In this document: in pieces, positions 2,798 to 40,164 of the stretch
Position numbering within the stretch: the stretch's first letter is position 1
How the letters are laid out: every line of letters starts with the position of its first letter
Assembly: GCA_001819095.1 (NCBI GenBank)
Contig: MHLS01000002.1
Location: 11,517-53,052 of the forward strand
Length of the DNA: 41,536 nucleotides
From: Candidatus Lloydbacteria bacterium RIFCSPLOWO2_02_FULL_54_12
GTDB lineage: Bacteria; Patescibacteriota; Minisyncoccia; Phycocordibacterales; UBA6899
Reading direction: 5' to 3'
Program-made: the position numbers and the translations under genes
Notes under the pieces: model-generated
What the model was told of the DNA's origin: nothing
The model's database searches: none
What the model saw: the letters and a program-made list of their open reading frames with translations, nothing else

Positions 2798-4150
2798 ATG
2801 ATCACATTCGGCGACGGAAATCTTCGCGTCCCGAAACTTTCGCGCCGCGTTTTTCTTGTCGGCGCGGGAATGACCGATTTTCGGAAGTTCTATCCCGCCA
2901 AACAGTCGTCGGAACTTTGTCTCGAGGCGATGAAAATGGCGGTGGAACGCCTCCGGATCTCGCCGCACGAGTTTCGCCAAAGGGTGAACTACGCGGTCTA
3001 TCCGCAGTTCGCCGATCACTTCGGCGACCAGCTGTTGGCCGAAGCGAAGATCCACGACTATCTCGGCTTTGACCCCATCGGGAATGTCGGCGTGAAGACT
3101 GGCGGCGCGACCGGCGGCACCGGTGCGAACACCGCCATCATGGCCGTTGCGTCGGGGTATGCATCCTGCGTTCCGGTCGTCGGATGGGAACGCATGGACG
3201 AGGTGGACACCCGCCAAGGGAATGCGTACATTGCGGGGGCGGCGTGCAAAGACTTCGAGTCGAACCTCGGCTGGTCGTACACCACGTACTACGCGCTCAT
3301 GATGCGGCGATACCTCGAGGAGAATCATCCCAACAGGGAAACGCTCGCCAAGATCGCGCAGAAGAATCACGGTTATGCGCGCTTCTCGCCGTTCTCGCAG
3401 ATTCCCGGTGACTACACCATCGAGGAGATCTTAAGTGCGAAAGTGGTGTCTGATCCGCTCACATTTCCTGAATGCTGTGCGATGTCGGTCGGCGCGACCG
3501 CGCTCATCTTCTGCGATGAGGAAACCGCGTTTCATCTGACGGATCACCCCGTTGAGGTCACCGGCATCGGAGCGGGTTCACATACGCTACGCACCGCCGA
3601 TCGGCGCAACATGCCGATACTTCTTCTTCCCAATGAAACAGAGGAGACCTACAAGGGTCGCGATCTTGACTGGCCCGGATTCACGAGTTTTCTCGCGGCA
3701 CGGTTCGCGGCGCGCCAGGCGTACCTCATGGCGGGTATCAAGGATCCGGTTGAAGAACTCGACCTTGCCGAGACGCATGACGCTTTCACCGTTTCCGACA
3801 TCCAGACATACGAAGACGTCGGCTTCCGTCCTTACGGTCGGGGTGCAGAGTTCGTTGAGAGCGGCGACGCCTATTTGGGCGGTCGGCTTCCGACGAATCT
3901 CTCCGGCGGGCTCATCGGTTCCATGCATTCGGTCGGCGCCACGGGGCTCTTCCAGTTGGCGGAGATCTTCTGGCAAGTGCGCGGCGAGTGGAACGAAGTT
4001 CACGGCGACGAAAAGCTCTGGCAGAAATACGGCAAGATCAAGCCGCCGGTCTGGCAGTGTCTCCAAGTGCCGGATGCGCGCCGCGGCATGGCGATAAGCC
4101 ACGCCGGTACGGGTTCGCATGTGACGTCAATCATCCTCGAGCGGAGATAG
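2798..4150 (+). CDS. Thiolase-like (SCP-x/archaeal-type) protein lacking the nucleophilic cysteine
   Basis: AAGGAG RBS. Thiolase landmarks are present: VGAGMTDF, MAVASGYASCVPVVGWERM, ETHDAFT and GGLIGSMHSVGATG. The position of the acyl-accepting Cys, 17 residues before the ASG glycine, is Gly (KTGGATGGTG). Confidence 0.8.
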   Translation: MITFGDGNLRVPKLSRRVFLVGAGMTDFRKFYPAKQSSELCLEAMKMAVERLRISPHEFRQRVNYAVYPQFADHFGDQLLAEAKIHDYLGFDPIGNVGVKTGGATGGTGANTAIMAVASGYASCVPVVGWERMDEVDTRQGNAYIAGAACKDFESNLGWSYTTYYALMMRRYLEENHPNRETLAKIAQKNHGYARFSPFSQIPGDYTIEEILSAKVVSDPLTFPECCAMSVGATALIFCDEETAFHLTDHPVEVTGIGAGSHTLRTADRRNMPILLLPNETEETYKGRDLDWPGFTSFLAARFAARQAYLMAGIKDPVEELDLAETHDAFTVSDIQTYEDVGFRPYGRGAEFVESGDAYLGGRLPTNLSGGLIGSMHSVGATGLFQLAEIFWQVRGEWNEVHGDEKLWQKYGKIKPPVWQCLQVPDARRGMAISHAGTGSHVTSIILERR

Positions 4151-20491: not shown

Positions 20492-20587
20492 CTAGGGGTG
20501 CTCCTCCACCCCGCTTGTGGCCCCACCACAAAAGGAACATTTCGCACTTTATCAAAGTGAGCGAAGGTGGTAGATTGGCGCTCAACT

Positions 20588-21226
20588 ATGGGAAAACCAC
20601 TACAACTTGTACTGATCGACGAAACTGGAGATCCTGGTTTTAAACTCGACGGCGGTTCGAGCCCAATTTTTGCCATTGGCATGGTTATATTTTCCGACTT
20701 TCTTGAGGCGGAAAAAACATCAGTTGCGATTAAGCAACTGCGGAGGGATATTTTTCATAATGATCACGCTGAATTTAAGTTTTCAAAGATACGGCCAGAG
20801 TTTCGCCACAGGTTCTTTGAGGCCATGGCACCATTTGATTTTACCGTAAGGGTTCTCTTGGTGGAAAAAGAAAAATTACGGAGCAAAAATCTCAAGTCAA
20901 ACAAAGGATCATTTTACAATTACTTTGTGAAAATGCTTCTCAAGCACAACAAAGGTACTGTCGCAAACGCAAGCGTGAAAATTGACGGAAGTGGAGACAG
21001 GGAATTTAAAAGAAAATTCTGCTCGTATTTAAGCGGAGAGTTAAACGCTCAGAATAGAATCGTGGAGAAGATAAAATTTGCCGATTCGCGCTCAGATGTG
21101 CTTATTCAATTGGCAGACATGGTGGTGGGTTGTGTTAGACGATGCCACGAATCCGAGAACAAAGAAGAGCAAAAGATGTTTGCCCTTCTTAAGCCAAAGA
21201 TCAGTGATATTTGGAAATTCGAGTAA
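20588..21226 (+). CDS. DUF3800 domain protein
   Basis: LVLIDETGDPG near the N-terminus and VLIQLADMVVG near the C-terminus fit the DUF3800 pattern (DE.G ... LQ.AD). ATG at 20588; the tracked ORF begins at a GTG at 20567. Confidence 0.65.
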   Translation: MGKPLQLVLIDETGDPGFKLDGGSSPIFAIGMVIFSDFLEAEKTSVAIKQLRRDIFHNDHAEFKFSKIRPEFRHRFFEAMAPFDFTVRVLLVEKEKLRSKNLKSNKGSFYNYFVKMLLKHNKGTVANASVKIDGSGDREFKRKFCSYLSGELNAQNRIVEKIKFADSRSDVLIQLADMVVGCVRRCHESENKEEQKMFALLKPKISDIWKFE

Positions 21227-21417
21227 AAGAAAACCCCCTTTCGGAGGTTTTCCCAATCTTCGAACCTATGCTGGTGTCCCAGCCACGCTACCTTAAGGTA
21301 ACAGTTCGGATGCGAAAATCTTTGTACCCTTATATTGCCTTATGGTACCACGCTGGTCAAGTGTACAACACGGGAGTCCCTAAAGGCGTTGAAAAATCTA
21401 GGGAATTAGGAAACACG

Positions 21418-29896: not shown

Positions 29897-30029
29897 TTTT
29901 GTGTCAAACGGACCAAGACCCCCACCACCAAGCCACTTTCGGGTGCTTGGTAGGGGGGGCATGTCCAAGGGGAGTACCCCCGAGTCGCCTATTTAGTGTA
30001 CTATCCACACTTTATCCACAGGCGGGGAC

Positions 30030-30066
30030 TTGCAGGTATTATATATAGTGTATATAATACACTAAG
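30030..30066 (+). promoter_or_regulatory. Promoter with palindromic operator (copy A) upstream of the nicotinamidase-like gene
   Basis: TTGCAG (30030-30035), 17-nt spacer, TATAAT (30053-30058). The palindrome TAGTGTAT-ata-ATACACTA (30046-30064) is centred on the -10 box. Confidence 0.55.
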
Positions 30067-30212
30067 TAAGAACGTTGACGCGCCTCGGGAAACGCAATCT
30101 CCCCATCGGTATAGGCGCCGTTTTGTTCTCTTCTCCGAACGGTCCAAAAACCGCTCGCGGGAGGCAACGTTCTTCCGTTCGTTGACAACCCAAACAGAGA
30201 AAGGTAAAGACA

Positions 30213-31040
30213 ATGGCCAAAGCACTGAAGGTGCACCTCCTCGTCATCGACCCGCAAGTGGACTTCATGGACGCTTCGGGATCGAGCTTGCCGGTTGCAG
30301 GCGCAACCCAAGACATGAAACGCCTTTCGGCCCTGATCGGCCGCGTCGGGCACAAGTTCGAGGACATCCACGTGACGCTCGATTCGCATCACACGATCGA
30401 CGTCGGACATCCGGGCATGTGGCGCGACCGAGACGGGCAAATGCCCAACCCGTTCACGCTCATCTTCGGGAAGGATATCGAGAACGGCATCTGGACGCCG
30501 CGCGATCCGTCGCTCCGCGCCCGCATGCTCACGTATGCGAACACGCTCGAAAAGAACGGGAATTACAACCTGATGGTCTGGCCCGAGCACTGCAAGATCG
30601 GCTCGCCGGGGCACAATGTGGAAGCGAACTTACTTGCGTCGCTCGAAGCATGGGAGCGCAAGGAATTCGCGACGGTGAATTACGTCACCAAGGGCACGAA
30701 TCCGTTCACCGAGCACTACGGCGCACTCATGGCCGAAGTGCCGGACCCGAACGATCCGTCGACCATGTTGAACGGTGACTTTCTTGCAATGCTTCAGGAT
30801 GCGGATATCGTCGGCGTGGCCGGCGAAGCGCTTTCGCATTGCGTGAAGTCGACCGTCGACCAGATCGCGCGGAATATCGGCGACGAGCACATCAAGAAGT
30901 TCCATATCCTGACCGACTGCTCGAATCCGGTCCCGCAAGTGGGCGGGGGCCCCGATTTCCCTGCGATCGCCAAGAAATGGCTCGGGGAGATGCAGTCCCA
31001 AGGGATGACGCTGGTGTCCTCGGCGGATTTTCTCAAGTAA
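30213..31040 (+). CDS. Divergent isochorismatase-family hydrolase, nicotinamidase (PncA)-like paralog
   Basis: LLVIDPQVDF (catalytic Asp region), LDSHHTIDVGHP (compare DWHPAGHLSF in pncA), WPEHCKIGSPGH (compare WPDHCIQDSKGA) and GEALSHCVKST (catalytic Cys region). It is 275 aa versus 215 aa for the canonical pncA at 34841. Confidence 0.7.
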   Translation: MAKALKVHLLVIDPQVDFMDASGSSLPVAGATQDMKRLSALIGRVGHKFEDIHVTLDSHHTIDVGHPGMWRDRDGQMPNPFTLIFGKDIENGIWTPRDPSLRARMLTYANTLEKNGNYNLMVWPEHCKIGSPGHNVEANLLASLEAWERKEFATVNYVTKGTNPFTEHYGALMAEVPDPNDPSTMLNGDFLAMLQDADIVGVAGEALSHCVKSTVDQIARNIGDEHIKKFHILTDCSNPVPQVGGGPDFPAIAKKWLGEMQSQGMTLVSSADFLK

Positions 31041-31067
31041 CGATCAAGACGAAAAAAGGAGAACATC

Positions 31068-31820
31068 ATGCCGCGTATCACCACTCCCGACGGGATGAAG
31101 GACCACAAGCTGGGCGGAAACTTTACATTCACCGCGAAGCGCATCGAGCACTTGGGTGCGACGGAGTACACGCTCGTCACCGTTGCGGTCGACGAATCCG
31201 GCTCGGTGTCCGGGTTCATGGACCAGCTCTTGGCGATGCTCAAGGAGGCGGTCGGCTCGTGCAAAGCGTCGCCGCGTTCGGACAATCTCCTCGTTCGCGT
31301 GCTCTACTTTTCGGACCGGTACCGCGGGGGCGTGACGGAGATCCACGGCTTCAAGCCGCTCGCCGAAATCGACCCCGCGCAATACCCGATGCCGAATCCG
31401 GGCGGATGGACGCCCCTTTGCGATGCGGTCTATTCCGCGGTCGGCGCAATGAACAAGTACGGCAAGGAGCTGTACGACCGCGATTACCTCGCGAACGGCA
31501 TCGCCTTCGTCATTACCGACGGCGGCGAGAATGCGTCGGTCGCGACGATGCCGATGGTGAAGGCGGAGCTGGCGAAGTCGGTGACTGGAGAGATTCTTGA
31601 GTCGATGGTCTCGATTCTGATCGGCGTTAATACCGCTTCCTGCAAGGATCATCTCGACCGTTTCAGCAAAGAGGCCGGTATGACGCAGTTCATCGATGCG
31701 GGCGACGCAAGCGCGAAAACGCTGGCGAAGATCGCGAAGTTCGTTTCGCGTTCCGTGTCGAGCCAGTCGCAGTCACTGGGAACAGGCGGGCCGAGCAAGC
31801 AAATCGCCGCCACGATCTAA
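31068..31820 (+). CDS. TerY-like vWA domain protein (TerY-P triad component)
   Basis: Strong AAGGAGA RBS. MIDAS VAVDESGSV plus FVITDGGEN. It is followed by PP2C and kinase genes. Confidence 0.8.
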   Translation: MPRITTPDGMKDHKLGGNFTFTAKRIEHLGATEYTLVTVAVDESGSVSGFMDQLLAMLKEAVGSCKASPRSDNLLVRVLYFSDRYRGGVTEIHGFKPLAEIDPAQYPMPNPGGWTPLCDAVYSAVGAMNKYGKELYDRDYLANGIAFVITDGGENASVATMPMVKAELAKSVTGEILESMVSILIGVNTASCKDHLDRFSKEAGMTQFIDAGDASAKTLAKIAKFVSRSVSSQSQSLGTGGPSKQIAATI

Positions 31821-31958
31821 AAGCCGTACCCCGTTAATTCATTCTTCTTTTTGCCGCATTTCCGAGGACTCACCTTGGCGTAAAGCCCCAAGGAGAGACC
31901 TCGGAGCATGGGGCGGTATGGAAATTGTTTATCGGGAATGGTAAGTCTATCAACAGCG

Positions 31959-31985
31959 GGGGCGGCCATGTGCCGCCCCTTTTTT
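31959..31985 (+). terminator. Strong intrinsic terminator between the vWA and PP2C genes
   Basis: Stem ggggcggc (31959-31966) / gccgcccc (31972-31979) followed by T6. The PP2C RBS (AAGGAGAG) starts immediately after the T-run. Confidence 0.75.
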
Positions 31986-32000
31986 CTCAAGGAGAGCACA

Positions 32001-32903
32001 ATGAAGTTTCGCGCAGACCACCACTTCGTGATCGGAGGCGACCACGTGACGTACGGGAAGCCGTGTCAGGACCACGCACTGTCGCAGGCGGACGACGGCA
32101 TGGCCGCTGTCGTCGTCTCCGACGGATGTTCGTCCGGCGGGGAGACCGACATGGGTGCACGTCTCACCACGTTCCTCCTCATGCAGACGATACGAGAGCT
32201 CGACAAAGGAAATCTGGGCCAAGAAAGTATTTTCGCCTCAAGGCACGCGGCGTTTTCCGCGGCGGCGACACTTCTCGGACTTCGGGAGACGGATACACTC
32301 GCCACGCTCCTCTATGCATATCTTGCACCGTCGGGCGGACACGTATATTTACAGGGCGACGGTGTCGTCGCACGAGAGCTCCGTGACGGCACGGTCATGC
32401 TTTCGCGCTTCGATTGGGCGAACAACATGCCGTTCTATCCGGCGTATGCGGATAGTGTGAACGGAAATTCCGAGCGTTTTGTCTTGGCCCACGGCGGAGA
32501 TCCTTCGGCGCGTCTCTTTACGGCGGAACACTGGGTGCGCTCTCCCGGTTCTTTGTGGACGAAAGCGTCCGAAGAAGCATCTTCGCTTCAGGACGGAATG
32601 AAGGGTGTCTCCATCGCCTTTGACGCCGCGGCAATGGAAGAAACATCGGCGGTCGCCGTCTTCACGGACGGTGTGACCTCGGTCTCTGGGGTTGACTGGA
32701 AAGATGCCGTGCTCCGGCTCCTTGATTTCAAGACGACGGAAGGAGCATTCATGAAACGCAGACTAAGCCGTGCGCTCAAGGAATTCGGCAAAGACGGCAA
32801 CGGACCGCGTGACGACCTCGCCTGCGCGGTCGTCCTTATCGCACATGACAAGAAAGGAGGGACCGATGAGTGCATTGAAACAACCGCGGAAACTCTCGCT
32901 TGA
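32001..32903 (+). CDS. PP2C-family protein phosphatase (TerY-P triad component)
   Basis: The ATG at 32001 follows AAGGAGAG. GKPCQDHAL...AAVVVSDGCSSGGETDMGAR matches the PP2C_2 pattern (QD ... vaDG.g). Confidence 0.75.
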   Translation: MKFRADHHFVIGGDHVTYGKPCQDHALSQADDGMAAVVVSDGCSSGGETDMGARLTTFLLMQTIRELDKGNLGQESIFASRHAAFSAAATLLGLRETDTLATLLYAYLAPSGGHVYLQGDGVVARELRDGTVMLSRFDWANNMPFYPAYADSVNGNSERFVLAHGGDPSARLFTAEHWVRSPGSLWTKASEEASSLQDGMKGVSIAFDAAAMEETSAVAVFTDGVTSVSGVDWKDAVLRLLDFKTTEGAFMKRRLSRALKEFGKDGNGPRDDLACAVVLIAHDKKGGTDECIETTAETLA

Positions 32904-34599
32904 AGGGAAGGGGACGGTCACGATCCATCCCTCGGATTACCTCACCAGCGGGGGCGAGGGCGAACTCTACCGCATCGGTGATACGGTAGTGAAACTCTAT
33001 ACCGACAAAGAAAAGATGCGCCGCGACGGAATGATCGCAAAGATCGCGCTCTTGCGCCCCCTGAAGCATCCGTCGGTTGTTGCACCTGCCGGCGTTGTCG
33101 CCTTGCCGACCGGGGAGCCCGTCGGTTTCCACATGCCGTATGTTTCGGGGGAACCGTTGTCGCGTCTTTTCACGAACGACTTTCGCCAGCGCGAGGGATT
33201 CACTCACGATATGACGAAGACTCTTGTCGAGCGGATGCGCGAGGCAGTCACCTTCGCTCACGACAAAGGAGCGGTGCTTGTCGACGCCAACGAGCTCAAT
33301 TGGCTTGCACGTGTGAAGGGCGCTGATGCGCCGATGCCTTACGTGATCGACGTTGACTCGTGGGCGATCGGCAAGTTCGGTGCCTCGGTCATCATGCCTT
33401 CGATCCGCGACTGGCACCGAGCCACCTTCGACCAAGGGAGCGACTGGTTCGCATGGGCGATTGTGACTTTCCAACTGTGGAGCGGCATCCATCCGTACAA
33501 AGGAAAGCTCGACGGGTACGGTCCCGGCGACCTTCTCGCGCGCATGAAAGCGAACAAGTCGGTTTTCACTTCCGGTGTCCGTCTCAATCGGGCGGTGCGG
33601 GATTTCCGCGTCATTCCGCCGCATCTTGCCCAGTGGTATGAAGCGACGTTCGAGTCCGGTTTGCGGGAACGACCGCCGTCCGCATTTGCGAGCGCTGTTG
33701 CTTTAGGTGGCGCGAAGACGGTGCTCTATGCGGTAACGACCGGAGCGGGGACGCTCGTGTTCGAGAAACTCTTCGACGAACCCTTGCGGCGCGTCGTCGG
33801 AGTTTGGCCCTCGGGGGTCCTCCGTTTGAAAGACGATTCGCTCGTCGAGCTTCGGACGAAGCGCACGATCAGTACCAACGCACCGCCAAGATGTGAGGTG
33901 GTGAAGGTGGAAGGCGGATGGCTTATCGCGCATGTTGAGAACGGTACACTCGCGGCGGAATACATCGCTCTAGCCACACTCCTTCCGACGAAGCTCACGC
34001 TCCCCATTGGCGCGCAAGGACTCTTTCGTTCGGGAGACCGACTTTTCGTCGTCACCCTACGGGGGATTACCGAGCTTACGCTCCGACTTTTCTCGAAGCC
34101 TGTGCTTGCGGTCGGTGGCACGTGGGCGGTGGCGACCAACTCGACTGCGTTTTTTGACGGCGTCGGTGTGAGCGACGTTCTGGGTGCGAAATTCCTCGTT
34201 CTTCCGTTCGGAGAAAGTGCATGCGCTCTTGTTCGTGCGCCGGAGCTTGATTCCGTGGCGGTCGTCAACGCGAAAGGCTTCGGGCGGTTCGTCGCGGCGA
34301 CTGTGCTCTCGAAAACGGGCGACTACAAGCTGCTCACGTTCACCTTCGACCGCGAGCACGGCGCTTACACATTCGCGGGACGGATCGTCGACTCGCCGGA
34401 ACTCAATATGGCGATACTTCCGAAAGGGGTCGCCGCGTCGATCGAGAACGACGGCGTGCTTTCGCTCACCGTCCCTACGGAAGGGCGCGTGGTCGAAGTT
34501 AGGGATAAGCACATCACGACCGACATGTTGCTCATGCGCATCGACGATCAGGTGCTTGCCGTTACAGGCGGCGCGCTCTCGAGCGTACGGATGCGGTAG
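32866..34599 (+). CDS. Ser/Thr protein kinase-like protein with a large beta-rich C-terminal domain (TerY-P triad component)
   Basis: The ATG at 32866 follows AAAGGAGGG. It has a glycine loop SGGEGELY, VVKLY (Lys) and HDKGAVLVDANELNWL (catalytic-loop-like). It overlaps the PP2C 3' end by 38 nt. Confidence 0.7.
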   Translation: MSALKQPRKLSLEGKGTVTIHPSDYLTSGGEGELYRIGDTVVKLYTDKEKMRRDGMIAKIALLRPLKHPSVVAPAGVVALPTGEPVGFHMPYVSGEPLSRLFTNDFRQREGFTHDMTKTLVERMREAVTFAHDKGAVLVDANELNWLARVKGADAPMPYVIDVDSWAIGKFGASVIMPSIRDWHRATFDQGSDWFAWAIVTFQLWSGIHPYKGKLDGYGPGDLLARMKANKSVFTSGVRLNRAVRDFRVIPPHLAQWYEATFESGLRERPPSAFASAVALGGAKTVLYAVTTGAGTLVFEKLFDEPLRRVVGVWPSGVLRLKDDSLVELRTKRTISTNAPPRCEVVKVEGGWLIAHVENGTLAAEYIALATLLPTKLTLPIGAQGLFRSGDRLFVVTLRGITELTLRLFSKPVLAVGGTWAVATNSTAFFDGVGVSDVLGAKFLVLPFGESACALVRAPELDSVAVVNAKGFGRFVAATVLSKTGDYKLLTFTFDREHGAYTFAGRIVDSPELNMAILPKGVAASIENDGVLSLTVPTEGRVVEVRDKHITTDMLLMRIDDQVLAVTGGALSSVRMR

Positions 34600-34610
34600 T
34601 GGTATCTAAT

Positions 34611-34635
34611 GGGGCGAGGAAACTCGCCCCTTTTT
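34611..34635 (+). terminator. Intrinsic terminator after the kinase gene
   Basis: Stem ggggcgag / ctcgcccc with loop gaaa, followed by T5. Confidence 0.8.
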
Positions 34636-34674
34636 GTTTTAAGTTTGGTGAGTTGTAACGCGTATGTGGTAATT

Positions 34675-34730
34675 CAAAGTACGAGGTCGAACCTTGAGGA
34701 ATGATTCTTAAGGTTCGACCTCGTACTTTG
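34675..34730. repeat. REP-like inverted repeat, family 1 (long copy)
   Basis: The 21-bp perfect arms are caaagtacgaggtcgaacctt / aaggttcgacctcgtactttg. The loop gaggaatgattct is similar to the loops at 38570 and 41448. Confidence 0.85.
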
Positions 34731-34840: not shown

Positions 34841-35488
34841 ATGGATACAATCGACCGTATCGGAATAAACGGGAGCGACGCGCTTCTCGTGATCGATCTC
34901 CAGAACGATTTCATGCCGGGCGGCGCACTTGCCGTCCCTTACGGCAACGAAGTGGTTCCCGTGGCGAATGCGCTCATGAGACACTTTGCGAACGTCATTC
35001 TGACAGAGGACTGGCATCCGGCAGGCCACCTTTCTTTCGCGTCGTCTCATGCCGGCAAGGGAGTGTTTGAAACGATCGCACTTCCCTACGGCGACCAAGT
35101 GCTTTGGCCCGACCACTGCATCCAAGACTCGAAAGGCGCAGAATTGCACGCCGGACTCGAGACGTGGCGCGCACAGCTTATCGTTCGGAAGGGGTACCGT
35201 CCGCACGTCGACAGCTACTCCGCGTTCACCGAGGCGGACGGCAAGCCGACGGGACTCACCGGCTATCTTCGCGAGCGCGGTATCAGGCGCGTGTTCATGT
35301 GCGGCCTTGCGACGGATTATTGCGTCCTCTGGTCCGCGACCTCCGCACGCAAGGAACGTTTCGGTGTCATCGTCGTCGGGGACGCCTGCCGTGCGATCGA
35401 CCTCAACGGTTCGCTTGCGTCAGCGCGGAGTGAAATGGAAAAAGTCGGAGTGGGCATGACCCACTCTGGGGCCATCCTCGCGCCGTAA
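34841..35488 (+). CDS. pncA: Nicotinamidase/pyrazinamidase
   Basis: ALLVIDLQNDFMPGGALAV, EDWHPAGHLSFAS, WPDHCIQDSKGAEL and GLATDYCVLWSA are all canonical PncA motifs. Confidence 0.9.
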   Translation: MDTIDRIGINGSDALLVIDLQNDFMPGGALAVPYGNEVVPVANALMRHFANVILTEDWHPAGHLSFASSHAGKGVFETIALPYGDQVLWPDHCIQDSKGAELHAGLETWRAQLIVRKGYRPHVDSYSAFTEADGKPTGLTGYLRERGIRRVFMCGLATDYCVLWSATSARKERFGVIVVGDACRAIDLNGSLASARSEMEKVGVGMTHSGAILAP

Positions 35489-35591: not shown

Positions 35592-36035
35592 ATGTCTGAC
35601 CCCGTTCAGGATTCACCCCAGAAGGCGTTGATCCACGGCATGGTGGCCGGACTTGTTTTCGGACTGCTGTTCGCCTATTTTCAAGGTCCGAAGGTGATAG
35701 CGGAGGTGCCCGCCGTCACGGTCATCGTCGGCAACCTCGCATTTGCCGCCATCTTTGCGTTCGCCTATTTCTTCTTTTTTCGCACCTCGGTCGCGAATGT
35801 GAAGGGAGATCCGAAGGGGCGGACCAAGTTCGCGGAGATCTATTTTCTCTGGATCGGCATGATCGTCGCGATGGAGAGCGTCAGGTTTTTCTTTGGCGCA
35901 TCGCTCGTCGACACCGCATCAACGGTCCTCTCGGTGGTCGTCGGCCTGTCCGTTTCCTACCGCAAGCTCTGCCAGATCTACCGGGCGGGAGGGGAAGGGG
36001 GCGGGGGAAACACTCCACAACCACCGTCGTCCTAA
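35592..36035 (+). CDS. Hypothetical membrane protein (about 4 TM helices)
   Basis: AAGGAGAG RBS. Hydrophobic segments run throughout, with a Gly/Pro-rich C-terminus. No family recognised. Confidence 0.55.
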   Translation: MSDPVQDSPQKALIHGMVAGLVFGLLFAYFQGPKVIAEVPAVTVIVGNLAFAAIFAFAYFFFFRTSVANVKGDPKGRTKFAEIYFLWIGMIVAMESVRFFFGASLVDTASTVLSVVVGLSVSYRKLCQIYRAGGEGGGGNTPQPPSS

Positions 36036-36046
36036 GTACAGCATCG

Positions 36047-36070
36047 AACGGCCGCCTCGGCCGTTTTTTT
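36047..36070 (+). terminator. Intrinsic terminator
   Basis: Stem aacggcc / ggccgtt followed by T7. Confidence 0.75.
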
Positions 36071-36096: not shown

Positions 36097-36127
36097 CTCA
36101 CTTAGTGTATATGATACACTAAGTGAG
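36097..36127 (+). promoter_or_regulatory. Perfect 14+3+14 palindromic operator (copy B) upstream of pnuC-nadR-nadD
   Basis: The palindrome ctcacttagtgtat-atg-atacactaagtgag has TATGAT at its centre and a possible -35 TTGGGC 18 nt upstream. Confidence 0.6.
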
Positions 36128-36144
36128 TAGGAGGAGAGTGTGAG

Positions 36145-36231
36145 ATGAGATTATCAGTTATTTCACTTTATCTATGTCAGAATACTTTTCTGTGGGGACG
36201 ACACTATTTACCGTCTGGGGTTACCCGATGA
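36145..36231 (+). CDS. Possible 28-aa upstream ORF coupled to pnuC
   Basis: AGGAGG (36129-36134) lies 10 nt before the ATG at 36145. The ORF (MRLSVISLYLCQNTFLWGRHYLPSGVTR) ends in an ATGA overlap with the in-frame pnuC Met19 codon at 36228. Confidence 0.3.
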   Translation: MRLSVISLYLCQNTFLWGRHYLPSGVTR

Positions 36232-36860
36232 GCCCCATCGAATTCATCGGGACGGTATTCAACATCCTCTGCGTGTGGCTCATCGCGCGCAACAATATCT
36301 GGAATTGGCCGGTCGGGCTCGTCGGTACACTCCTTTTCGGTATGCTCTTTTGGCAGGTCGCGCTTTACTCGGATTTCTTCGAGCAGATATACTTCTTTGT
36401 TACGGGGATCTGGGGGTGGTGGCTCTGGCTTCGTCCGAGAGACGAAGAAGATAAGGCGAAGGGCGGACGTCGCATCGTCACCATTTCGGCGCGTGCCCGC
36501 CTTATTTATGTTTTTGCCATCGCGCTCGGGACGGTCGCTTTGGGTGCTTTGACCTTTAGACTTCCGGAACTCTTTCCCGTCCTTTTTCCCGAGCCGACGT
36601 CGTTCCCGTATCTCGACGCGTTCACCACGGTCATGAGTTTCGCGGCGACCATCCTCATCATGCGCAAGGAACTTGAGTGCTGGGCGCTCTGGATCATCGT
36701 CGACATCATCGGTATCGGTCTCTACTGGGCGAAGGACGTGAAACTCGTTGCGATACTTTACGTGATCTTCCTTGTGCTTGCGACACGAGGTCTTATCAAC
36801 TGGTACAGACTATGGAAGACGAACGCTCCCTTACCGGCCATAAGTGTCACGGCACAATGA
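36174..36860 (+). CDS. pnuC: Nicotinamide riboside transporter PnuC
   Basis: FNILCVWLIARNNIWNWPVG and a multi-TM profile are typical of PnuC. The start is ambiguous: the ATG at 36174 has no RBS, and the ATG at 36228 is coupled to the upstream ORF. Confidence 0.85.
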   Translation: MSEYFSVGTTLFTVWGYPMSPIEFIGTVFNILCVWLIARNNIWNWPVGLVGTLLFGMLFWQVALYSDFFEQIYFFVTGIWGWWLWLRPRDEEDKAKGGRRIVTISARARLIYVFAIALGTVALGALTFRLPELFPVLFPEPTSFPYLDAFTTVMSFAATILIMRKELECWALWIIVDIIGIGLYWAKDVKLVAILYVIFLVLATRGLINWYRLWKTNAPLPAISVTAQ

Positions 36861-37870
36861 AGACCGGTCTTGTCATCGGCAAATTCCTCCCGCCCCATCG
36901 GGGGCACCTGTATCTCATCGACGTTGCGCGTGCGCATTGTGACCGGTTGATCGTTGTCGTGTGCGACAGGGCGGGAGATGTTGTAGAGGCCCGTTCGCGT
37001 GCGGGGTGGTTGCGGGAACTCTATCCCGACGTCGATGTGCGCGTGGTGCCGGATATCGGTTTCGATGATGATTCCAAGAAGTGGGCAGCTTATACGGTGG
37101 AGTTCTTGGGTTTTGCGCCGGACATCGTCTTCACTTCCGAAGACTACGGCGAACCGTACGCGAAGTTTCTCGGTGCGGAGCATTACCTTGTCGACCACGA
37201 GCGCAAGGGTGTCTTTATGTCCGGAACGACAGTCCGTGCCGACGTGTCGAAAGCATGGTCCTATCTCCCTCCTCAAGTGCGGGTGCATTTCGTGCGTCGC
37301 GTTGCCGTCGTCGGTGCCGAGTCAACGGGGACAACGACCTTGGCGAGGGCACTTGCCGAGCGTTACGAAACGACGTGGGTTCCGGAGTACGGCAGGGAGT
37401 ACTCGGAAGAGAAGATGCGCCGCGGCGTTCTCGAGTGGAAGAGCGACGAATTCATCCACATTGCCGTGGAGCAGCTGCGGCGGGAGAATGAGGCGGCACG
37501 GAATGCGAAGCATCTCCTCGTCTGTGACACCGACGCATTTGCCACCACGCTGTGGCACGAGCGTTACATGGGTCTTCCGTCTGAAACGGTCGCACGCATT
37601 GCGGATCAGGTAGTGCACGACCTCTATATATTGACGGGTGACGAGATACCCTTCGTTCAAGACGGTTTCCGCGACGGTGAGCACATCCGCCACGGGATGC
37701 AACGGAGATTTTTTGAGGAATTGAAGCGCACTGGACGTCCGTATCTCCACGTGGAAGGTTCTCCCGAGGAGCGCCTTGCGGCGGCCTCGCGCGCCGTCGA
37801 CAAACTTTTGACGCTTCCCCACGGTCGCCGCCTCACACAGGCACATATCGACGAGTCTCTTGCGCGCTGA
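36857..37870 (+). CDS. nadR: NadR-type bifunctional NMN adenylyltransferase / ribosylnicotinamide kinase, without the HTH domain
   Basis: ATGA overlap with the pnuC stop. GKFLPPHRGHLYLI (GxFxPxHxGH) and MSGTTVR are present. The P-loop VVGAESTGTTTLARALA has Thr where the Walker A Lys is expected. No N-terminal HTH is present. Confidence 0.8.
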   Translation: MKTGLVIGKFLPPHRGHLYLIDVARAHCDRLIVVVCDRAGDVVEARSRAGWLRELYPDVDVRVVPDIGFDDDSKKWAAYTVEFLGFAPDIVFTSEDYGEPYAKFLGAEHYLVDHERKGVFMSGTTVRADVSKAWSYLPPQVRVHFVRRVAVVGAESTGTTTLARALAERYETTWVPEYGREYSEEKMRRGVLEWKSDEFIHIAVEQLRRENEAARNAKHLLVCDTDAFATTLWHERYMGLPSETVARIADQVVHDLYILTGDEIPFVQDGFRDGEHIRHGMQRRFFEELKRTGRPYLHVEGSPEERLAAASRAVDKLLTLPHGRRLTQAHIDESLAR

Positions 37871-37905
37871 TCTCATTCTTGGTGTACAGTAATAAGCATC
37901 GGCGT

Positions 37906-38550
37906 ATGCAAAGAAAAAGACGCATCGCAATAGCGGGGTCCGCGGCGAATCCAATCTCGCTCGGTCATGAGGAGTTCGCGGAAGCGCTGACACATTCCGG
38001 ACTTTTTGCTCTGGTGCTCTGGTTCCCGTCGGGGACCCGCACCGACAAGCCCGATCTTGCTTCTCCGGAAGATCGCGTGCATATGACCGAGATTGTCTTC
38101 AACGAAGCGTGGCGAACAGCACAGCCGACGGCATTTCGCATCGATCTGCGCGAGGCGTTCCGTCCGTCGATCCCGACGATACAACTCCTGCGCGAGATAC
38201 AACAAGAGCACATCGACGCCGAGATCGTCTTTGCGACCGGTGTTGACGTCCTCGCGCCGCGCAAGGAATACGGCAATCGCTCCGATGTTGAGCGCTATTG
38301 GGTCGAGGGAGAGAAACTCCTTTGCGACTGGACGTTCGCGGTATTTCCGCGCGAAGGGTATCCCCGTCCGGAAATTTTACAAAAAGAGGGGAAGCTCCCC
38401 GCGCATTTTTTGCTTCTTCCGCGTTCGGAGTCGCCGGCCGCGGGCATCTCGAGCACCGAGGTGAGGCGAAGGGTGAAAGCGGGGGAGTCTTTTGACGACC
38501 TCGTCCGTCCCGAGGTAGCGAAATATATCCGAGAACACGGGTTATATTGA
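37906..38550 (+). CDS. nadD: Nicotinate/nicotinamide mononucleotide adenylyltransferase (NadD-like)
   Basis: IAIAGSAANPISLGHEE (variant of GxFxPxHxGH, with SxGH) and ISSTEVRRRV (ISSTxxR). ATG at 37906; the tracked ORF starts at a TTG at 37879. Confidence 0.75.
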   Translation: MQRKRRIAIAGSAANPISLGHEEFAEALTHSGLFALVLWFPSGTRTDKPDLASPEDRVHMTEIVFNEAWRTAQPTAFRIDLREAFRPSIPTIQLLREIQQEHIDAEIVFATGVDVLAPRKEYGNRSDVERYWVEGEKLLCDWTFAVFPREGYPRPEILQKEGKLPAHFLLLPRSESPAAGISSTEVRRRVKAGESFDDLVRPEVAKYIREHGLY

Positions 38551-38602
38551 ACGTACAAGGTCGGACCTTGGGGATTAATTCTTAAGGTCCGACCTTGTAC
38601 GT
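38551..38602. repeat. REP-like inverted repeat, family 1 (long copy)
   Basis: The 19-bp perfect arms acgtacaaggtcggacctt / aaggtccgaccttgtacgt start directly after the nadD stop codon. The loop is ggggattaattctt. Confidence 0.85.
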
Positions 38603-38677: not shown

Positions 38678-38713
38678 TTGACAGGATTTATATAGTGTAT
38701 ATACTACACTAAG
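38678..38713 (+). promoter_or_regulatory. Promoter with palindromic operator (copy C) upstream of pncB
   Basis: TTGACA (38678-38683), 16-nt spacer, TATACT (38700-38705). The operator is tatagtgtat-ata-ctacactaag (38691-38713). Confidence 0.6.
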
Positions 38714-38823
38714 AAGCATGAGGGAGTTTCCGAGTCAGAAATTGACATATCACGATGTCTGTGGTAGTTAACGTCTAGCCTTGTGCGTTGTTTTTGGTCT
38801 TTGAGTTCTTTGAGGAGAAGGTG

Positions 38824-40164
38824 ATGACCGCGTTCCTGAATACTCCCGTAAGTGAGGGTCCACCCAACCGCTCCGTGGTGGATGACGACATTTACAAGTT
38901 CATCATGTTGCAGTTCATTCTGCGCTTCTATCCGGACGTGCAGGTGAAGTTTTCGCTCATCAATCGCGACAAGAAGATCCCGCTTGGAGACGTTGTCTCC
39001 GAGCACGAACTTCGCGCCGCGTTTGACCATGCCCGTACATTGCGTTTTGGCCCGCGCGTCAAAGACACCAACATTGCGTACATGCGGGGCATGCGCATGC
39101 ATCAGCAGGTGATGTTTGACGAGCCATACTTCGAATTCCTCGAACACTTCGAGCTTCCGCCGTACGAACTTTCGCGTGTGGGAAACCAGTATGCGATGAG
39201 CTCCTCGGGGCCGTGGTCGAGGGCGACGTTCTGGGAAATTCGGATGATGCAGATCCCCGTGGAGTTGTATTACCGCGAACTGATGCGTCGCATGACACCC
39301 ATCGAGCGCGAGGTGCTTTATAGCCGGGCGACCGACCGTATCTACAAGGAGCTTTCGAAGCTCTCGAACTCGAAGTACAAACCCAAGGTGGTGAACTTCG
39401 GCACACGCCGTCGCCACAGCTTCCTCTGGGAAAAGTTCGTCACTGCGATGTGCAAGGAAGTGCTCGGCGACCAACTCATCGGCACGTCGAACATCTGGAT
39501 GGCACATCACTTCAATCTCGTTCCCATGGGTACGAACGCCCACGAACTTCCGATGGTGGCGACCGCGATCGCGAAGGGTGATGACGCCAAGCGGAGAGCG
39601 CAGTATCAGGTGCTCGAGCAGTGGCAGAAACTGTACGGAGTCTTTTTGCGCATCTGCCTCCCTGATACGTTCGGAACGAAGCAGTTCCTCGCGAACGCAC
39701 CGGAGTGGCTCGCCGACTGGCGTGGCTTCCGCGACGACTCGGGCGATACCTTCGAGAACATCGAGGGGTACATCGACTGGTATAAGGAGCGGGGGATACT
39801 CAAGCCGAAGGAGGCGGGTAAGATAGTTATTCCGAGCGACGGAGAAAACGCGGACCACGCCCTAAAAGTCTGTGAAGCGTTCGATGAACACATCAACCTT
39901 TCCTTCGGTATCGGTCCGAATCTCACCAATGCATTCTTCGGATGCCATCCGACCCCCGACAAGAAGGTGCCCGGCCTCGACGTCACCTGGGCCGAAGCGT
40001 TTCGCCCCTTCTCCATCGTTGCGAAGGTCGAAGAGGCGGACGGAAATCCTGTCGTTAAGCTCTCGAACAACATCACGAAAGCGACCGGCCCAAAAGATGC
40101 GGTTGCCGAGAGCGTGAGGATCTTCGGTGGGGAAGGCCGGATCAAGCAAAGAGTTGTTGTGTAG
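38824..40164 (+). CDS. pncB: Nicotinate phosphoribosyltransferase
   Basis: GAGGAG RBS before the ATG at 38824. DDDIYKFIMLQF, NFGTRRRHS and PMGTNAHELPM are PncB hallmarks. Confidence 0.85.
   Translation: MTAFLNTPVSEGPPNRSVVDDDIYKFIMLQFILRFYPDVQVKFSLINRDKKIPLGDVVSEHELRAAFDHARTLRFGPRVKDTNIAYMRGMRMHQQVMFDEPYFEFLEHFELPPYELSRVGNQYAMSSSGPWSRATFWEIRMMQIPVELYYRELMRRMTPIEREVLYSRATDRIYKELSKLSNSKYKPKVVNFGTRRRHSFLWEKFVTAMCKEVLGDQLIGTSNIWMAHHFNLVPMGTNAHELPMVATAIAKGDDAKRRAQYQVLEQWQKLYGVFLRICLPDTFGTKQFLANAPEWLADWRGFRDDSGDTFENIEGYIDWYKERGILKPKEAGKIVIPSDGENADHALKVCEAFDEHINLSFGIGPNLTNAFFGCHPTPDKKVPGLDVTWAEAFRPFSIVAKVEEADGNPVVKLSNNITKATGPKDAVAESVRIFGGEGRIKQRVVV

Follow-up and report, generated by a model that had tools for sequence, protein, structure and literature searches.

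In a 41,536-nt stretch of the genome of Candidatus Lloydbacteria bacterium RIFCSPLOWO2_02_FULL_54_12 (hereafter the window), four genes on the forward strand encode a divergent PncA-like cysteine hydrolase, a von Willebrand factor A (vWA) protein, a PP2C-type phosphatase and a Ser/Thr kinase. We consider this cassette to represent a widespread, horizontally transmitted module of the ADP-ribose-responsive NrtR regulon of nicotinamide adenine dinucleotide (NAD) metabolism, i.e., a regulated nicotinamidase module, and assign this reading a probability of about 60%. It draws on gene content and order, their conservation across genomes, an operator at the promoter, an NrtR encoded in the same genome, co-occurrence with NAD genes and protein folds. 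Carried by tiny bacteria from groundwater and by contigs classed as large phages, the cassette is probably an undescribed, phosphorylation-controlled part of NAD recycling, and by analogy would work like an NrtR-controlled pncA-pncB salvage operon with a TerY-P-like phospho-switch attached to it. In the literature, neither a link of TerY to an isochorismatase or nicotinamidase nor one of NrtR to a vWA protein was found, nor was a description of the combination.

NrtR operator, NAD genes and conservation of the cassette

The hydrolase gene is preceded by a perfect palindrome (Table 1), which in its extended 21-bp form, TTAGTGTATATAATACACTAA, holds the core GT-ATATAAT-AC as well as the TATAAT -10 box of the predicted promoter. 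Within the window this palindrome occurs three times compared with 0.02 expected copies, namely before the hydrolase gene (30046), pnuC (36103) and pncB (38693). Genome-wide (1.37 Mb), the operator was additionally located ahead of nadA-nadC, of a Nudix gene and of an Mqo-like gene. The genome encodes NrtR on contig C40 (C40:23869-24568), a protein of 226 aa that combines a Nudix domain with the NrtR winged helix (PF21906/NrtR_WHD, E 1.2e-22); nadA-nadC are located on the same contig behind the operator at 3270. Based on the GT-N7-AC core, the copies before NAD genes and the NrtR encoded in the genome, the palindrome at the hydrolase promoter is assigned as an NrtR operator, with binding and response to ADP-ribose as predictions. 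Characterized NrtR sites are 21-bp palindromes with a GT-N7-AC core, from which the protein is released in vitro by ADP-ribose (PMC2330246). The nrtR gene itself follows a TTGACA element and, just before its start codon, a weak site that deviates from the operator at 3 positions, which suggests autoregulation.

Other explanations for the regulation of this promoter were rejected. The genome lacks the 3H domain expected for NiaR, the upstream extension of the NadR-like gene contains no plausible helix-turn-helix, and the approximately 145-nt 5' untranslated region gave no Rfam match and a fold z-score of -0.84, disfavoring a riboswitch or leader. The hydrolase promoter, read from the sequence, was not listed by an automated promoter scan. 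A box, GTTCGTTGACAAC, at 30180-30200, roughly 25 nt ahead of the hydrolase start codon, is conserved between the window and its closest relatives (loci L001-L003), unlike the rest of the untranslated region.

The cassette was followed through a scan of relatives with one genome per species, which returned 309 loci, 80 of them being read for locus counts. The order hydrolase-vWA-PP2C-kinase on one strand is found in 72 of these 80 loci, most of the others stopping at a contig edge, and the vWA gene is positioned directly 3' of the hydrolase gene in 75. Sources of the loci are many lineages of the Candidate Phyla Radiation (CPR), Bradyrhizobium (as proviruses), Rhodoferax, Micavibrio, Chthonomonadaceae and a cyanobacterial metagenome-assembled genome (MAG). 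Five distant CPR genomes (loci L081-L085, in genomes G245, G185, G086, G148 and G393) carry a second order, PP2C-kinase-hydrolase-vWA, with a hydrolase identity of 32-38% and with one to three NrtR-like sites ahead of the tightly packed or overlapping genes; nrtR is located directly upstream in three of these genomes. Three Rhodoferax MAG loci (L075, L077 and L078) have the hydrolase only, with no vWA, PP2C or kinase gene within 3.5-10 kb downstream, so the hydrolase can stand alone. Directly upstream and divergent, nrtR is present in L075 and L077, and L078 has only 147 nt of upstream sequence. An apparent vWA-PP2C fusion in L074 (10914-12752) was discarded as Rosetta-stone evidence because the vWA reading frame shifts after about residue 137, in what is a pseudogene or else an assembly error.

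Clustering of all flanking open reading frames (ORFs) of the 80 loci revealed NAD genes as recurrent neighbors. Most frequent were nrtR (39 loci, mostly directly upstream, divergent in Rhodoferax) and pncB (38), followed by nadE (18-22), nadD (11), NAD kinase and ADP-ribosylglycohydrolase (7 each) and canonical pncA (5); 53 of the 80 loci have at least one NAD gene nearby. In 42 of the 80 loci, the 450 nt ahead of the hydrolase contain NrtR-type sites, two or more of them in 24 loci, with a density of 1.88 per kb compared with 0.05 per kb elsewhere, corresponding to a 38-fold enrichment. On phylum level, a sample of 401 genomes (20 NrtR-positive, 381 NrtR-negative) contained the hydrolase in 7 of the NrtR-positive and in none of the NrtR-negative genomes. 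The vWA family was detected in 7 of the 401 genomes and adjoins the hydrolase in 6; within this sample, either family hardly occurs apart from the other. In 15-17 of the 24 CPR genomes with the cassette, any other isochorismatase-family gene is absent. The NAD neighbors, the upstream operators, the restriction to NrtR-positive genomes and the scarcity of other isochorismatase-family genes place the cassette, as a prediction from sequence, inside the NrtR regulon. The initial annotation, made from the letters of this stretch, had seen an NAD-regulon operator in the hydrolase promoter and proposed a link to NAD metabolism. The operator is corroborated by its recurrence before NAD genes and by the encoded NrtR, and the link proved to be real and much stronger than proposed, with four genes travelling together across phyla and in viral-classed contigs, among nrtR, pncB and nadE and only in NrtR-positive genomes.

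The cassette is also present in viral sequence data. In IMG/VR, the hydrolase is encoded at 65 loci, with the vWA gene adjacent in 61 and all four genes within 8 kb in 40, many of the contigs being 200-600 kb long. Many of these contigs count as viral by IMG/VR classification alone. Among 16 records that were checked, three are flanked by direct terminal repeats and reach a CheckV completeness of 100%, Terminase_6N is matched by three, and 11 contain a NAPRTase-family gene, several of these inside the cassette locus. A tree resolves three clades with support 1.0, one of the second gene order, one with mainly viral members and one that is bacterial. The window protein falls into the bacterial clade beside a Lloydbacteria MAG, and the Bradyrhizobium proviruses nest among CPR sequences. 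These proviruses (L034, L042, L049 and L087-L092; 110-130 kb) carry the cassette with no internal terminator (23-24 nt spacer) and with an extra 380-600 nt between PP2C and kinase.

The Nudix and Mqo-like genes behind further operator copies were characterized in part. On contig C14 (C14:23969-24565), a one-mismatch operator precedes the Nudix gene, whose 183-aa product retains the Nudix box but has no winged helix and is probably an NrtR-controlled ADP-ribose pyrophosphatase. On contig C10 (C10:8138-9681), an NrtR-type operator over a TTGACA promoter precedes a 483-aa Mqo/DAO-like FAD oxidoreductase, a family also found near the cassette in four related loci, which may be an NAD-regulon enzyme, e.g., a stand-in for NadB.

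Cassette proteins and the internal terminator

In an alignment with the canonical PncA encoded further downstream in the window, the hydrolase shows 27% identity, three insertions and a C-terminal extension. Within a set of 10 homologs, D13, K160 and C210, aligning with the catalytic Asp, Lys and Cys of PncA, are invariant, and so are the metal-site positions D57, H59, H66 and H126, the latter being part of the motif WPEHC. These four residues would be the counterparts of the PncA metal ligands that bind the pyridine nitrogen. A family profile searched against the PDB matched nicotinamidases only (best E 4e-6), and more than 2230 homologs were detected, some of them carrying PF00857. The hydrolase itself matched neither PF00857 nor NF008623 even at E 10, and the Pfam, NCBIfam and PADLOC models all miss it. 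Taken from these sequence features, the protein is likely a nicotinamidase that would feed PncB.

The vWA protein had no match from the Pfam, NCBIfam and PADLOC sequence models, and a vWA profile searched against PDB sequences gave none either. Its identity was settled by the fold search instead, in which the AlphaFold model (pLDDT, the predicted local distance difference test, 86.9) retrieved integrin I and vWA domains by Foldseek with probability 1.0. The residues of the metal ion-dependent adhesion site (MIDAS), D42, S46, T115 and D151, are invariant, and strong conservation is also seen in a C-terminal tail rich in Ser (residues 227-243, S227 to S243). In the PP2C protein, the acidic and DG motifs are invariant (D24, D41-G42, D120-G121, D223-G224 and D271-D272). 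The kinase model (pLDDT 90.3) consists of a Hanks-type domain (residues 1-270) and an all-beta domain of about 280 residues (295-577). With LRRK2, a kinase with a WD40 propeller, as best Foldseek match, the modelled C-terminal domain is probably a beta-propeller.

The gene layout (Table 1) agrees in every described element with the initial annotation, which had placed the vWA gene 27 nt after a 275-aa PncA-like hydrolase retaining its Asp, metal-binding His and Cys regions, and a strong terminator with its U-run abutting the PP2C ribosome-binding site. The first gap is exactly 27 nt long and contains an AAAGGAG ribosome-binding site, all of the named hydrolase residues proved invariant in the homologs, and the hairpin with its T6 run is followed by the ribosome-binding site AAGGAGAG (31989-31996) and the PP2C ATG at 32001. 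The PP2C and kinase ORFs share 38 nt (32866-32903).

Table 1. Features of the cassette and of its surroundings in the window
Feature	Positions	Strand	Description
Weaker NrtR-like site	29995-30013	+	TAGTGTACTATCCACACTT; aligns with the conserved second site in the closest relatives L001-L003
Predicted hydrolase promoter	30031-30059	+	-35 TTGCAG, 17-nt spacer, -10 TATAAT inside the operator; read from sequence
NrtR operator	30046-30064	+	TAGTGTATATAATACACTA; perfect 19-bp palindrome TAGTGTAT-ATA-ATACACTA, GT-N7-AC core
Hydrolase gene	30213-31040	+	275-aa PncA-like cysteine hydrolase, predicted nicotinamidase
vWA gene	31068-31820	+	250 aa; intact MIDAS; conserved Ser-rich C-terminal tail
Predicted internal intrinsic terminator/attenuator	31958-31986	+	9-bp GC stem (31958-31980), then T6
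PP2C-type Ser/Thr phosphatase gene	32001-32903	+	PF13672, E 1.3e-13
Kinase gene	32866-34599	+	577 aa; Hanks-type Ser/Thr kinase with C-terminal all-beta domain
Cassette-end terminator	34611-34638	+	8-bp stem, 7 GC pairs, then TTTTTGTTTT
Canonical PncA gene (context)	34841-35488	+	NF008623, E 5.9e-54, above curated cut-off
Operator, then pnuC, nadR-like, nadD-like	36103-38550	+	same regulon
Operator over promoter, then pncB	38693-40164	+	TTGACA-16-TATACT promoter; same regulon

The hairpin between the vWA and PP2C genes has a stem free energy of -19.7 kcal/mol (z -2.66) and is located in a spacer of 180 nt, compared with a median of 73 nt and with 55 nt in the closest relative, L001. In the window, an extra stretch of about 125 nt with a small hairpin (ccttgg...ccaagg) occupies 31821-31957 ahead of the terminator. 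Median spacers over the loci are 38 nt for hydrolase-vWA, 73 nt for vWA-PP2C and -4 nt, i.e., an overlap, for PP2C-kinase. Considering spacers of at least 50 nt and hairpins of at most -9 kcal/mol with a T-run directly after, 53 of 65 vWA-PP2C spacers contain such an element (median -19.8 kcal/mol), compared with 3 of 33 hydrolase-vWA spacers and 0-6 of 65 shuffled vWA-PP2C spacers. The T-run starts at a median of 27 nt ahead of the PP2C start codon, and the stem sequences vary by locus. Bradyrhizobium and some Rhodoferax copies, with spacers of 17-24 nt, have no hairpin.

From this terminator, a different control of the two halves of the cassette had been proposed initially, which now appears doubtful. 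With the ribosome-binding site immediately after the U-run, there is no space for a promoter behind the terminator, and the second gene order packs all four overlapping genes into one NrtR-controlled operon. In viral contigs, the hydrolase and vWA genes stay adjacent and the PP2C and kinase genes drift. The lack of room for a promoter, the single operon of the second order and the persistence of the viral hydrolase-vWA pair make the hairpin look like an attenuator, which by partial termination would set the product ratio.

Downstream of the cassette, the canonical PncA gene begins 3.8 kb after the hydrolase, and the window operator scan gave no match nearby upstream of it. Between this gene and the pnuC operator, a 147-aa membrane protein of unknown family is encoded (35592-36035), with a terminator of its own (36046-36066). 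Two related palindromic elements of about 50 nt, GTAC(G/A)AGGTCG(A/G)ACCTTG...TTCTTAAGGT(T/C)CGACCT(C/T)GTAC, are located at 34668-34730, after the kinase terminator, and at 38551-38600, after the nadD-like stop codon; they resemble a REP- or MITE-like hairpin family. Elsewhere in the window, an Rfam DUF3800-IX RNA (21252-21319, minus strand; 45 bits, above the gathering score) is positioned just after a DUF3800 gene (20567-21226).

Proposed mechanism and alternative explanations

Sequence and comparison point to the following course of events. Transcription of the operon would start at the promoter whose -10 box is located inside the NrtR operator. NrtR would repress it until a rise in ADP-ribose, as a sign of NAD being cleaved, released the repressor. 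The first products would be a nicotinamidase of the PncA type and the vWA protein as a partner dedicated to it, the former turning nicotinamide into nicotinate for PncB and subsequently for NadD and NadE. The hairpin and U-run after the vWA gene would stop most transcripts, so that PP2C and kinase would be made by read-through only, in lower, catalytic amounts. In the most speculative step, the kinase, with its beta-propeller as sensor, and PP2C would set the phosphorylation of the Ser-rich vWA tail or of the hydrolase, and this phosphorylation state would gate the deamidation of nicotinamide.

Control of bacterial NAD salvage is thought to be transcriptional (NadR, NiaR, NrtR). Since the predicted nicotinamidase is almost always accompanied by a kinase, a phosphatase and a vWA adaptor, an additional level of control that acts after translation is suggested. 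We know of no substrate of the TerY-P-like triads, YegL-PphC-YegI of E. coli included; the hydrolase module would, if our reading is true, supply the first concrete metabolic client for a triad of this kind. The presence of the cassette in contigs classed as large phages, beside NAPRTase-family genes, bears in addition on the fight of phage and host over NAD. All cassette proteins are small and soluble, making the idea directly testable in E. coli. A more detailed version, which we regard as doubtful, assumes a stoichiometric hydrolase-vWA complex that is switched by kinase and PP2C via the Ser-rich tail according to a signal which the propeller senses. Together with PncB, NadD and NadE, it would form an undescribed signal-gated NAD route of the Preiss-Handler type, run by CPR bacteria under the ADP-ribose sensor NrtR and serving large phages as a fourth reconstitution pathway against NAD-depleting immunity, the terminator keeping the modifying enzymes sub-stoichiometric.

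Several points weigh against the regulated nicotinamidase module. A plain nicotinamidase would be redundant in this genome with the canonical PncA nearby, and the substrate of the hydrolase could differ from nicotinamide since the Pfam and NCBIfam models miss the protein. The action of kinase and phosphatase on the vWA protein or the hydrolase is conjectural. Enzyme activity, ADP-ribose response, partial termination and phosphorylation target are predictions from sequence and comparison; the sequencing runs containing this stretch are DNA metagenomes only, with no RNA-seq run among them. Moreover, few genomes of the phylum carry the module, it has spread horizontally and it occurs often in viral-classed contigs, which is typical of conflict systems too, and in the window it is situated beside a defense-type island of restriction-modification, NYN and toxin-antitoxin genes.

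Such an island and the sporadic, horizontally spread distribution would fit an anti-phage variant of TerY-P, in which the triad switch senses infection and the hydrolase is the effector, e.g., by depriving a phage of the nicotinamide needed to restore NAD. The initial annotation had pointed in this direction by identifying a TerY-P triad, which it described as reported among validated anti-phage systems. Regarding architecture (vWA, PP2C and kinase), this identification stands; the stand-alone form of the triad indeed defends against T7-like phages (PMC11090510, PMC7699616), and NrtR would induce the cassette when NAD is cleaved. A role as a validated defense system was supported by no test. 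The PADLOC models gave no match for vWA and PP2C at E up to 1 and noise-level matches only for the kinase (mad6, PD-T4-6), in a scan with no TerY-P positive control. This negative result is weak, as the E. coli set was uninformative too, YegL and PphC having no match and YegI weak kinase-model matches. Against the variant stand also the kinase C-terminus, a predicted beta-propeller in place of an OB-fold or zinc ribbon, and the conserved neighbors nrtR, pncB and nadE. Recurrent neighbors in the 80 loci being NAD genes and not defense genes, we rejected a reading as defense island. Many contigs classed as large phages carry the cassette themselves, and a conversion of nicotinamide to nicotinate beside pncB builds NAD and does not deplete it. 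The cassette does not look like a stand-alone anti-phage system, and we judge the anti-phage variant decidedly unlikely. A module serving mainly as a tool in NAD conflicts, rebuilding NAD after NADase attack, is unlikely as well, albeit slightly less so. In phages it would provide a fourth, Preiss-Handler-type reconstitution route, and in CPR bacteria an NrtR-controlled restoration after self-inflicted or foreign NAD cleavage. The 65 IMG/VR loci with their 61 adjacent vWA genes, the records with terminal repeats and complete genomes or a terminase match, the NAPRTase-family genes and the use of other enzymes in the known routes NARP1, NARP2 and NARP3 all speak for it. On the other side, many contigs are called viral by database classification alone, and the role in infection is deduced from gene content. 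This explanation overlaps with a regulated nicotinamidase module in the cell and differs from it in the selective context only.

The remaining alternatives concern the enzyme and the gene association. A hydrolase that is no nicotinamidase would act on another amide (nicotinamide mononucleotide, nicotinamide riboside, NAD or a signalling nucleotide), with the triad reporting on or controlling that chemistry. The failure of the Pfam and NCBIfam nicotinamidase/isochorismatase models, the insertions and C-terminal extension relative to PncA, and a canonical PncA coexisting here and in four related loci favor this idea; the complete and invariant metal site and catalytic triad, the most frequent metabolic neighbor pncB, which needs nicotinate, and the majority of CPR carriers having no other PncA-like gene oppose it, rendering it very unlikely in our view. 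Adjacency by chance of a metabolic hydrolase and an unrelated signalling triad, with no functional meaning, is contradicted by the conserved gene orders, one recurring across phyla and a second one with the same members, and by a vWA family found almost only beside the hydrolase, leaving this explanation with a negligible share of our belief.

Comparison with known systems

With the TerY-P triad, the cassette shares a MIDAS-bearing TerY-like vWA protein, a PP2C and a Ser/Thr kinase encoded side by side on one strand. The TerY-P kinase fusions described in PMC11090510 (citing Anantharaman et al. 2012 and Gao et al. 2020) carry a zinc ribbon (CoCoNuT type) or an OB-fold (the defense type of Gao), whereas the cassette kinase would end in a beta-propeller. 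In addition, the cassette is headed by a hydrolase and wired to NrtR and NAD genes.

A similar set is YegL-PphC-YegI of E. coli. The YegI kinase domain is homologous to that of the cassette kinase (hhalign probability 97.6%, E 3e-12), PphC resembles the cassette PP2C (BLASTP E 2e-6), and YegL is weakly similar to the vWA protein, including the Ser-rich C-terminal tail (51%, E 1.5e-4). Like the PP2C and kinase genes of the cassette, pphC and yegI overlap in most strains (bioRxiv 10.1101/819920). In contrast, YegI is a membrane protein with no propeller, and the E. coli set, whose substrates and role are not known, comprises no hydrolase and has no link to NrtR or NAD (bioRxiv 10.1101/819920).

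The phage pathways NARP1, NARP2 and NARP3 (bioRxiv 10.1101/2024.02.11.579819; PMC13464706) likewise consist of phage-carried genes that rebuild NAD from breakdown products or precursors, and the cassette is found in many large-phage-classed contigs beside NAPRTase-family genes. The routes differ in their enzymes: NARP1 consists of Adps and Namat, NARP2 proceeds via nicotinamide mononucleotide, NARP3 consists of PnuC and NadR, and none uses a nicotinamidase or a kinase, phosphatase and vWA set.

The NrtR salvage regulons of Clostridium, Pseudomonas and Lactobacillus (nrtR-pncA-pncB(-nadD-nadE); Rodionov et al. 2008, PMC2330246) differ from the cassette in two respects. Its predicted nicotinamidase belongs to a divergent 275-aa subfamily, distant from the PncA of the same genome, and the vWA, PP2C and kinase genes, which almost always follow the hydrolase, are listed in no published NrtR regulon. 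The genes nrtX-nrtY, of unknown function (PMC2330246), were not identified here. Common to both are a Nudix-related repressor, a 21-bp palindromic GT-N7-AC operator overlapping the promoter, for which ADP-ribose is the published effector (PMC2330246), and a nicotinamidase-type first gene with pncB, nadD and nadE nearby.

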